Virus record (IMG/VR): IMGVR_UViG_2695420763_000017
Coordinates: 1 to 46,150 of that record
DNA: 46,150 nt
Direction: 5' to 3' (one strand)
From: a virus
Taxonomy: Duplodnaviria; Heunggongvirae; Uroviricota; Caudoviricetes
Of this stretch, positions 26,213 to 27,308 are shown one piece after another (positions within the stretch are counted from its first letter, which is position 1; each line of letters begins with the position of its first letter). The translations under genes were made by a program, and so were the position numbers. Under the pieces are notes generated by a model, which saw only the letters and a list, made by a program, of their open reading frames with translations, ran no database searches and had not been told where the DNA came from.

Positions 26213-26881
26213 ATGGATATCTATGGGATTGTTGGTGCAGGTGGTTTTGGTCGTGAAGTTGCACCTTTAGTTCAGTTCATGTTCGATGAACTACCGTTTC
26301 ATGATAGTTATAAATTAGTATTTATTGTTGAGAATTCTGAAAGTAAGCAAATTTCTGGAATTGATGTTCTATCTCCACAGGAGTTCTGTGAATCTGATTA
26401 TGATAACAAGTTCTTTAATGTCGCTATTGGTGATAGTAAAGTTAGAGAAAGGATAGCCTCAATGTTAATGGCGGCTGGTGCTGTCCCCTTTACCATTAAA
26501 GGACATCACAGTATTCAATATGAATCTAGTGATATTCATGATAGTGCCATCCTATGCCCTTTTACGTGTGTCACAGCGGATGCAAAAATAGGTAAGTTTT
26601 TCCATGCGAATATATATTCATATGTTGCCCATGATTGCATTATAGGGGACTATGTTACCTTCGCTCCGGGTGTTAAATGTAATGGAAGCGTTGTTATTGG
26701 TGATCACGTATATGTTGGGGCGGGTGCAGTTATAAAACAGGGTTCTCCTAAAAGACCAATTATCATTGGGGATGGGGCAGTTATAGGAATGGGAGCCGTC
26801 GTTACAAAAAGTGTGCCAGCTGGAGTGACTGTGTTTGGGAATCCTGCGAAACCTTTAACCAAAAAGGGGATGGCATCGTAA
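26213..26881 (+). CDS. hexapeptide-repeat sugar acyltransferase (NeuD/PglD-like)
   Basis: N-terminal IYGIVGAGGFGREV, C-terminal left-handed beta-helix repeats (IGDYVTFAPGVKCNG...IGDHVYVGAGAVI...IGDGAVIGMGAVV); AT-rich. Confidence 0.8.
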   Translation: MDIYGIVGAGGFGREVAPLVQFMFDELPFHDSYKLVFIVENSESKQISGIDVLSPQEFCESDYDNKFFNVAIGDSKVRERIASMLMAAGAVPFTIKGHHSIQYESSDIHDSAILCPFTCVTADAKIGKFFHANIYSYVAHDCIIGDYVTFAPGVKCNGSVVIGDHVYVGAGAVIKQGSPKRPIIIGDGAVIGMGAVVTKSVPAGVTVFGNPAKPLTKKGMAS

Positions 26882-26882
26882 A

Positions 26883-27308
26883 ATGAAAGTTAGAGATAAC
26901 ATTCCTTTTGATGAAATTATTATTGGGATGAGTGCAAGTTATTCACAAACGATAACTGATGCAGATATAAAATCATTTGCTGGGATATCTGGAGATCACA
27001 ACCCTGTTCATGTAAATGAAGAGTATGCGGCTAATTCAAGATTTAAAAAGCGAATAGCGCATGGAATGATATCATCGAGCTTTTTTTCAGCATTGTTTGG
27101 AACTAAGTTGCCCGGGTATGGTTGTGTTTATACATCTCAAACTCTTAATTTTAGATATCCTGTTTACGTAGGTGATACAGTTACTGCTATAGTTACAGTA
27201 AAATCAAAAGACGATAAGAGGCGCAGGGTAGTATTTGATACGGTGTGCAAGGTTGGAACTCGTAAAGTAATAACTGGAGAGGCAGAAATATACATACCGG
27301 AAGATTAA
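26883..27308 (+). CDS. MaoC-like (R)-specific enoyl-CoA hydratase / hotdog-fold protein
   Basis: FAGISGDHNPVHVNEEYA...RIAHGMISSSFFSALFG matches the MaoC dehydratase signature; starts 2 nt after the acyltransferase stop. Confidence 0.8.
   Translation: MKVRDNIPFDEIIIGMSASYSQTITDADIKSFAGISGDHNPVHVNEEYAANSRFKKRIAHGMISSSFFSALFGTKLPGYGCVYTSQTLNFRYPVYVGDTVTAIVTVKSKDDKRRRVVFDTVCKVGTRKVITGEAEIYIPED

Follow-up and report, generated by a model that had tools for sequence, protein, structure and literature searches.

The window analysed here is a stretch of 46,150 nucleotides (nt) from a tailed-phage record (IMG/VR IMGVR_UViG_2695420763_000017), and the subject of this work is a pair of adjacent genes in it, for a sugar acyltransferase and a MaoC-type hydratase, which lies behind the tail genes of an SfV-family prophage of Escherichia coli and is a candidate lysogenic-conversion cassette. 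The initial annotation, made from the letters alone, had placed two AT-rich open reading frames (ORFs) here, and both were found intact on the plus strand, at 26213-26881 and 26883-27308; the gap between them is 1 nt and not 2 nt as given there. The first ORF, which starts with ATG at 26213, ends with TAA at 26879-26881 and has a GAGGG Shine-Dalgarno sequence 4 nt upstream, encodes a Class I (NeuD/PglD/VioB/WeeI-type) nucleotide-4-amino-sugar N-acyltransferase of 222 amino acids (aa). The second, translationally coupled to it, encodes a PhaJ-like (R)-specific enoyl-CoA hydratase (MaoC) of 141 aa. The G+C content of the pair is 38.4%, against 54.5% in the structural genes. The operon is closed by an intrinsic terminator on the plus strand (27315-27351), likewise noted initially, in which a 10-bp GC-rich outer stem is followed by UUUUUU; its minimum free energy is -18.6 kcal/mol (z = -6.6), and none of 200 shuffled sequences folded as well. 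Two overlapping sigma-70-like promoter candidates, both weak, were found upstream at 26155-26199 on the plus strand (TTGAGA-17-TACTAT and AGGACA-16-GATAAT, each matching 9 of 12 positions), and the number of promoter-like sites in the region was not above the shuffled expectation. The 235-nt spacer that separates the pair from the upstream tail-fibre assembly gene showed no plus-strand terminator, and read-through from the late operon may thus occur as well.

The assignment of the first gene product to the hexapeptide NeuD/PglD-like acyltransferases was borne out. The protein matched the NCBIfam model TIGR03570 (NeuD/PglB/VioB) over residues 6-213 of 222 with 165.2 bits, a narrow margin above the cut-off of 160.8, and is bilobal, with a PglD_N domain (PF17836, residues 6-85, E 3.7e-9) followed by Hexapep and Hexapep_2 matches at residues 123-199 that form a left-handed beta-helix. 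Full-length alignments were obtained with PDB entry 4m9c (E 2e-71), which we take to be Acinetobacter baumannii WeeI, with Pcryo_0637 (7l7y, 3e-58) and with A. baumannii VioB (7txp, 6e-22); the Neisseria pilin glycosylation protein (4m98) and PglD matched more weakly. Residues His140, Asp141 and Asn133 are near-invariant over 92 acyltransferase homologues and align with His142, Asp143 and Asn135 of Pcryo_0637. In Class I enzymes the asparagine bridges a water to the C-4' nitrogen. The three aligned residues of Pcryo_0637 are its catalytic residues, and the characterised Class I enzymes acetylate the C-4 amine of nucleoside diphosphate (NDP)-4-amino-4,6-dideoxyhexoses, namely UDP-QuiNAc4N, GDP-perosamine and dTDP-4-amino-4,6-dideoxy-D-glucose (dTDP-viosamine, dTDP-Qui4N) (PMC9271549). 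The nearest characterised relatives of the phage protein are 4-amino-sugar N-acetyltransferases. From its context, with VioA next to it in related loci and vioA in all six carrier hosts described below, it is predicted to act on the 4-amino group of an NDP-4-amino-4,6-dideoxyhexose. It is only about 30% identical to the VioB of E. coli O7 over 121 aa and belongs to a different subfamily. No neu genes were present in the contexts examined, although the host genomes were not scanned for them.

The MaoC-like hydratase assignment of the second gene product was also right. It matched PF01575, the hot-dog domain, with 93.3 bits (gathering score 27; E 1e-26), and its PDB matches are (R)-specific enoyl-CoA hydratases (5cpg, 3e-32; 1iq6, 2e-25). 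The hydratase-2 motif (FAGISGDHNPVH, F32-AGISGDHNPVH-43) is intact, as is Ala49, and the catalytic Asp/His motif of 1iq6 is matched by Asp38 and His43. The protein is predicted to hydrate trans-2-enoyl-CoA to (R)-3-hydroxyacyl-CoA. Bulky residues at the positions of Leu65 and Val130 in PhaJ from Aeromonas caviae, PhaJ(Ac), restrict the substrate to short chains, and Phe72 and Ile136 align there in the phage protein; since both are bulky, they suggest, as a weak pointer, a short substrate of C4-C6. Against the flagellar-island and Pseudomonas-prophage copies described below, the dN/dS of the MaoC gene is about 0.07, a value obtained for some pairs only, dS between phage and island copies being saturated. 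Over 13 non-redundant loci the identity of MaoC is 58-79% and that of the acyltransferase 49-79%, so that MaoC is the more conserved of the two.

The initial annotation had set the pair at the position where serotype-converting phages carry their conversion genes, and this placement was supported by homology and not by analogy alone. From 19589 to about 24935 the window is 97% identical in nucleotide sequence to the Shigella phages SfII, SfI, SfV and SfIV. In SfV the order is Mu-like baseplate genes, the short fibre orf21, the assembly protein orf22, a terminator, gtrV-gtrB-gtrA, attP and int. In the window, the short tail fibre gene (24632-25390, plus strand; weak Collar match) has its N-terminal part inside the 97% match, and its C-terminal part is about 89% identical to the fibre of mEp213/mEp043. 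It is followed by the last structural gene, for the tail fibre assembly protein equivalent to SfV orf22 (25390-25977, plus strand; PF02413 Caudo_TAP, E 3.5e-28), which does lie directly upstream of the pair as had been noted, across the spacer mentioned above. Because the tail module is homologous to that of the SfV family and SfV carries gtrV-gtrB-gtrA at this point, the acyltransferase-MaoC pair, judged by homology and gene order, fills the slot that holds the seroconversion genes (gtrABV) in SfV. The further statement that the pair directly precedes att did not hold, as about 4 kb more cargo, with three AT-rich ORFs for proteins of 517, 176 and 155 aa, lies before the end of the prophage. 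The cargo in this slot, a hotspot, varies: in strain EC20 a related prophage has a GIY-YIG gene and a restriction-modification pair there (a C5-methyltransferase and a restriction endonuclease), followed by the same P4-like element as in the window.

The closest relatives of the pair are located between fliC and fliA, where the two genes again stand side by side in unchanged order. In an enterobacterial copy of this kind the acyltransferase and MaoC are both 79% identical to the phage proteins, and in Buttiauxella agrestis they are 68% and 73% identical, respectively. Both fliC-fliA pairs are accompanied by a DegT aminotransferase and by a protein of about 1,100 aa with the architecture methyltransferase-TPR-GT41. 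The copy in the window sits in a prophage with no DegT or glycosyltransferase (GT) gene nearby. The aminotransferase of the flagellar islands is 59-65% identical to E. coli VioA, and its best PDB match is DesI (2po3, E 3e-67), which forms dTDP-4-amino-4,6-dideoxyglucose. In Pseudomonas syringae, a viosamine island puts Qui4N(3-hydroxy-1-oxobutyl)2Me on flagellin by means of VioA, VioB and a VioT of 1,173 aa (PMC3927599), and the enterobacterial flagellar islands are compact versions of it. Some Enterobacteriaceae have flagellin glycosylation islands that include NeuD-type acetyltransferases, but 136 Escherichia strains had no such island (PMC4875605), and on this ground flagellin was rejected as the target in E. 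coli. The Buttiauxella agrestis island is intact in one genome, and in another its GT41 gene is broken into several ORFs and its aminotransferase gene frameshifted; a 2016 survey had scored Buttiauxella as lacking flagellin glycosylation islands.

Apart from the flagellar islands, the cassette was found in polysaccharide loci and in other phages. MaoC lies immediately downstream in 13 of the 92 non-redundant acyltransferase homologues, in beta- and gammaproteobacteria, often with the MaoC gene overlapping or coupled to the acyltransferase gene, and the MaoC-paired acyltransferases fall into about four groups in a crude neighbour-joining tree. In Pseudogulbenkiania the order is rmlB-rmlA-vioA-acyltransferase-MaoC-GT56-wzx, with a VioA 74% identical to that of E. 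coli; in Stutzerimonas it is initiating transferase-acyltransferase-MaoC-aminotransferase-WbpM-like dehydratase; and in Pseudomonas the cassette stands at or inside O-antigen loci in three cases. In a Pseudomonas prophage it follows a beta-helix tail protein and a lysin and precedes the integrase; on an IMG/VR siphophage contig it is flanked by an SGNH tail protein and the integrase; and in a prophage-like region of a metagenome-assembled genome of Pseudomonadota (locus L017, 683-5892) it separates a Wzy_C gene from the gene for an 813-aa tail protein with an S74 chaperone domain. The last arrangement looks like a composite O-antigen conversion module, Wzy_C being O-antigen polymerase- or ligase-like. 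Judged from these contexts and counting the prophage in the window, the cassette appears in at least four phage lineages. A nucleotide search of 50,697 deposited phage genomes gave no match to the pair, and a protein search of the same genomes gave no real MaoC homologue and three distant acyltransferase homologues. The contig scan, which used one genome per species and exact peptide words, missed E. coli and Buttiauxella and returned homologues of 46-59% identity only.

Some acyltransferase homologues stand without MaoC. One, 58% identical, lies directly after Caudo_TAP on an E217-like prophage contig (L008/L009, 10001-10654), and another, 52% identical, lies between the lysis genes and the gene for a 726-aa protein in Acinetobacter phage TPWB-05 (L109, 3555-4226). 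In the aphid symbiont Candidatus Hamiltonella defensa a 61%-identical acyltransferase is found in a decayed polysaccharide locus, and a MaoC-like stretch just downstream, found by tblastn and uncalled as a gene, is probably a pseudogene.

In this enzyme family a switch between acetyl and 3-hydroxybutanoyl donors has a precedent in the K loci of A. baumannii, where loci with qhbA give QuiNAc4NAc and loci with qhbC give QuiNAc4N(3-hydroxybutanoyl) (PMC9676051).

The pair was found in 6 of 5426 complete E. coli genomes, each time directly after the same tail-fibre assembly gene. On inspection of the loci, all six carriers have vioA in the O-antigen cluster, and the cassette is thus restricted to vioA-positive hosts among the complete genomes examined; vioA-like DNA is present in 172 of the 5426 (3.2%), an upper bound, as some of these matches are other DegT genes. 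Five carriers (D9, D4, S3, OY754416 and OY754389) share a rare O-cluster, rfbB-rfbA-wzx-vioA-GT-wzy-GT-GT2-glf-GT, found in only 8 of the 5426 genomes. The sixth, O39:NM F8704-2, has the O39 cluster, which runs rfbBDAC-vioA-acyltransferase-wzx and onward. The hypergeometric probability of this association is about 1e-9 if the six carriers are independent, and about 1e-3 to 3e-5 if there were only two or three independent acquisitions. Among the carriers there are two O-antigen types and three layouts of downstream cargo, and the prophage is integrated at prfC in O39:NM and S3 but at pao in D9, D4 and the two OY genomes. The pair is intact even in decayed prophages: in S3 the whole region from the small terminase to the tail fibre has been lost, and in D9 and D4 an IS66 has entered a baseplate gene. 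The fibre gene is 90-94% identical to those in prophages of many other E. coli, including strains labelled O103:H2, O78:H51 and enterotoxigenic H10407; because it is so common, a host range determined by the fibre is not obviously the explanation of the restriction to vioA hosts.

Taken together, these results lead us to favour, at slightly better than even confidence, the reading that the pair is a lysogenic-conversion cassette that N-acylates dTDP-Qui4N, probably with a hydroxyacyl group, in competition with the VioB of the host. According to this model, VioA of the host would make dTDP-Qui4N, and the phage MaoC would hydrate a short trans-2-enoyl-CoA, likely crotonyl-CoA from beta-oxidation, to (R)-3-hydroxyacyl-CoA. 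The acyltransferase would then load the (R)-3-hydroxyacyl group, or failing that acetyl, on the C-4 amine of dTDP-Qui4N and would compete with VioB for this precursor. We infer that part or all of the Qui4NAc of the O-unit would in this way become Qui4N(3-hydroxybutanoyl) in the lipopolysaccharide (LPS), with a gain of 44 Da per repeat; if the glycosyltransferase of the host rejected the new donor, the O-antigen would be depleted instead. Either outcome would alter both the serological epitope and the receptor that the O-antigen offers to phages, as the Gtr cassettes do in the sister phages. Expression in the lysogen is supposed within the model. The initial annotation had proposed a phage-borne pathway that decorates a surface glycan with acetyl or 3-hydroxyacyl groups and so changes serotype or phage receptor. 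Acylation of a glycan component gains strong comparative support, as the same cassette appears in viosamine flagellin islands, in O-antigen clusters, at prophage ends and in E. coli only in vioA hosts (6 of 6). The point of action is revised, as both enzymes are predicted to be cytoplasmic and to act on the dTDP-Qui4N precursor and not on the finished glycan, and the nearest relatives of the cassette serve flagellin and not LPS. More broadly, and tentatively, with slightly less than even confidence, an SfV-family phage may have exchanged periplasmic glucosylation for a portable two-enzyme hijack of a precursor, in which dTDP-viosamine is caught in the cytoplasm and the N-acyl group of the O-antigen is rewritten. 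Travelling among flagellin islands, O-antigen clusters and phages of at least four lineages, the cassette would be a general seroconversion module, so far unrecognised, with a host range set by the sugar pathway of the host.

Several observations weigh against this interpretation. The acyltransferase is far nearer in sequence to the enzymes for UDP-QuiNAc4N (4m9c, Pcryo_0637) than to the A. baumannii VioB that uses dTDP-Qui4N, and in Stutzerimonas, and perhaps at one Pseudomonas locus, the cassette is paired with a WbpM/PglF-type dehydratase, so that the family as a whole is not tied to one nucleotide carrier. Among the 92 homologues the MaoC-paired and the unpaired acyltransferases are not separated by any residue column, a signature being defined as present in at least 80% of paired and at most 25% of unpaired sequences, and because of this the acyl donor cannot be read from the sequence. 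The supply of enoyl-CoA in E. coli depends on fatty-acid beta-oxidation. The pair is co-directional with the late operon, without an intervening terminator and with promoter matches at chance level, which weakens the case for its expression in the lysogen. Both O-types have a VioB of their own (the O39 enzyme is 57% and that of the shared cluster 46% identical to the characterised O7 VioB), so that by this comparison the phage enzyme is unneeded to complete the pathway. The six carriers are not phylogenetically independent, and 3 of the 8 genomes with the shared O-cluster lack the pair. In the literature searched, no biochemical or LPS data on the cassette were found. Finally, the annotations give a frameshift in vioA of O39:NM and one in wzx of D9, which may be assembly errors or real decay.

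In O39:NM F8704-2 the annotation gives manC as frameshifted too; the regions concerned in this genome and in D9 are L101, 12628-13739, and L100, 22965-24391. Three-frame translation of the O39:NM vioA region showed that the frame shifts once, at about mid-gene, as a single indel would produce.

Four other explanations were considered. The acylated dTDP-Qui4N could be unusable by the glycosyltransferase of the host, so that the pair would drain the precursor and truncate or abolish the O-antigen; the cell surface would become rough or semi-rough and exclude superinfecting phages, with no new epitope. Up to the acylation step the evidence for such a sink is the same as for the conversion cassette, and transferases can be acyl-specific, as VioT of P. 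syringae strictly recognises the N-acyl group of viosamine (PMC3927599); however, VioB of the host would still compete for the precursor and loss of O-antigen is costly in the gut, and we regard this explanation as improbable. To the same degree improbable is a plain additional N-acetyltransferase, which would use acetyl-CoA and duplicate or boost VioB, with a MaoC of no metabolic relevance in E. coli. The close relatives with solved structures are all acetyltransferases, and RefSeq names the gene a sugar acetyltransferase. Yet MaoC is tightly linked to the acyltransferase in 13 non-redundant loci and at least four phage lineages, is more conserved than its partner and has the low dN/dS of about 0.07, and a redundant enzyme would yield no conversion phenotype.

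Still less probable, in our estimate, is a passive cargo, that is, a fragment of a flagellin-glycosylation or O-antigen cluster that was caught by illegitimate recombination and is without function in E. coli. The absence of the aminotransferase and glycosyltransferase partners from the prophage, the rarity of the cassette (6 of 5426 genomes) and the variable nature of the slot, which holds a restriction-modification system in EC20, would fit this explanation. It is opposed by the state of the pair, with both ORFs intact, the catalytic residues present in every copy and a Shine-Dalgarno sequence and terminator of its own, as well as by its survival in decayed prophages, by the association with vioA of the host, and by the capture of the same pair at an equivalent position in several unrelated phages. 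Least probable is a different acceptor, such as the dTDP-Fuc4N of enterobacterial common antigen, another amino sugar or a non-sugar amine: all E. coli make dTDP-Fuc4N and nucleotide specificity varies in the acyltransferase clade, but a target in the common antigen leaves the confinement to vioA hosts (6 of 6 against 3.2%) unexplained, and the C-4 amine is axial in Fuc4N and equatorial in UDP-QuiNAc4N, GDP-perosamine and dTDP-Qui4N, the substrates that PMC9271549 names for Class I enzymes.

The family assignments as such are not new, because RefSeq already names the two genes 'NeuD/PglB/VioB family sugar acetyltransferase' and 'MaoC family dehydratase'. What appears to be new is that the pair stands in the SfV seroconversion slot, that it descends from viosamine-type glycosylation cassettes, that it occurs in several phage lineages and that its association with vioA hosts is exclusive. 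A literature search on MaoC together with hydroxybutanoyl acylation of sugars gave no description of the cassette. To our knowledge, the known mechanisms of phage seroconversion all act on the assembled O-unit, by Gtr glucosylation, membrane O-acetylation or a change of the polymerase linkage. The combined evidence points to seroconversion at the level of the nucleotide sugar, of which no description was found in the literature searched; a soluble cassette that re-tailors the precursor would be a further mechanism. Its action would require a host with the appropriate amino sugar already in its repertoire, and this dependence would explain the strict co-occurrence with vioA. If the conversion cassette acts as proposed, O-typing by genotype could mispredict the antigen of vioA-containing E. 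coli (O39 and the O116-like cluster), phage traffic would link the tailoring genes of flagellin glycans with those of LPS glycans, and the two genes would be a compact tool for placing 3-hydroxybutanoyl on viosamine-containing glycans.

The remainder of the cargo region and the adjoining element were also annotated, all features below with a stated strand being on the plus strand. The 517-aa ORF (28118-29671, plus strand, 37% G+C) carries the RefSeq name 'sigma-70 family RNA polymerase sigma factor'. Its product had no Pfam or PADLOC match and gave weak region-4-like matches only, over residues 21-63, among them the defence sigma factor MzaA (MZA; E 9e-4). The gene accompanies the pair in O39:NM, in S3 and, divided into two ORFs, in D9/D4; in the OY genomes a lipase gene is found instead. 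A hydrophobic 176-aa ORF (29968-30498) abuts the 155-aa ORF (30498-30965), both on the plus strand with 33% G+C and no family match; the stretch from about 29675 matches other E. coli genomes too and is contiguous there with a P4-like integrase element. PADLOC gave no match for the pair or for the 517-aa and 176-aa proteins, and only sub-threshold LmuB-like noise for the 155-aa protein; a defence-system reading of the pair is unsupported by it. Similarity to the same prophage end in strain D9 extends to about 31568. Directly downstream of the prophage cargo is a second integrative element (31733-42321), which begins with a P4-type integrase (31733-32947) and encodes AntA (34376-35176), a D5/DUF5906 primase-helicase (38041-39846) and ProQ/FinO (40218-40760). 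No tRNA gene was found within the window. A second dip in G+C content (37%) lies at 4001-5000 in the early prophage region, around a 261-aa ORF (4186-4971), and may be another moron.

Among known systems, the gtrA-gtrB-gtrV genes of SfV, SfII, SfI and SfIV are in the same phage family and in the same slot towards attP, presumably with the same purpose of altering the O-antigen of the lysogen. The Gtr proteins are membrane enzymes that add glucose to the completed O-unit on the periplasmic side, and their genes run against the direction of the tail genes, whereas the present pair is predicted to consist of two soluble cytoplasmic enzymes, is co-oriented with the tail genes and would make an N-acyl change to a nucleotide-sugar precursor. 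No Gtr or AT3 domain was found in the pair, whose proteins both match families of soluble enzymes. Enzymes of the Oac type, like Gtr, are membrane proteins. The pair would work, as proposed here, like a conversion cassette, but it lacks the defining feature of Gtr and Oac, which are membrane enzymes that act on the assembled O-unit, and is not a member of those families. Oac of Sf6, atr29/atr30 of an A. baumannii prophage and NeuO of CUS-3 are likewise prophage-encoded enzymes for acyl modification of a surface polysaccharide (PMC9676051), and NeuO is also a hexapeptide-repeat enzyme (3jqy, a weak match to the phage acyltransferase). However, these enzymes O-acetylate the polymer, and none of them is known to N-acylate a nucleotide amino sugar or to bring an acyl-donor enzyme.

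The viosamine island of P. syringae (vioA, vioB, vioR, vioS, acp, vioM, vioT) makes the same kind of sugar as the predicted product of the cassette, and the enterobacterial flagellar islands resemble it in having a VioA, an acyltransferase and a transferase of the size of VioT, to which a methyltransferase is fused. The P. syringae pathway assembles the hydroxybutanoyl group on acyl carrier protein with a ketoacyl synthase III (KAS III) and a reductase, whereas here MaoC is predicted to supply a CoA thioester; unlike that island, the prophage has no vioA or transferase. With WeeI/QhbA (4m9c, as taken above), Pcryo_0637, PglD, PerB and A. baumannii VioB, the phage acyltransferase shares the bilobal fold and the catalytic His and Asn. 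The characterised Class I members use acetyl-CoA, the closest of them on UDP-QuiNAc4N, while the context here points to dTDP-Qui4N and a hydroxyacyl donor, for which A. baumannii QhbC is the genetic precedent in the family, with its transfer of 3-hydroxybutanoyl. The hydratase has the same single hot-dog domain, of about 140 aa, and the same hydratase-2 motif as PhaJ (A. caviae 1iq6; 5cpg), but PhaJ feeds polyhydroxyalkanoate synthesis, whereas the phage hydratase is tied to a sugar acyltransferase in glycan loci and prophages.

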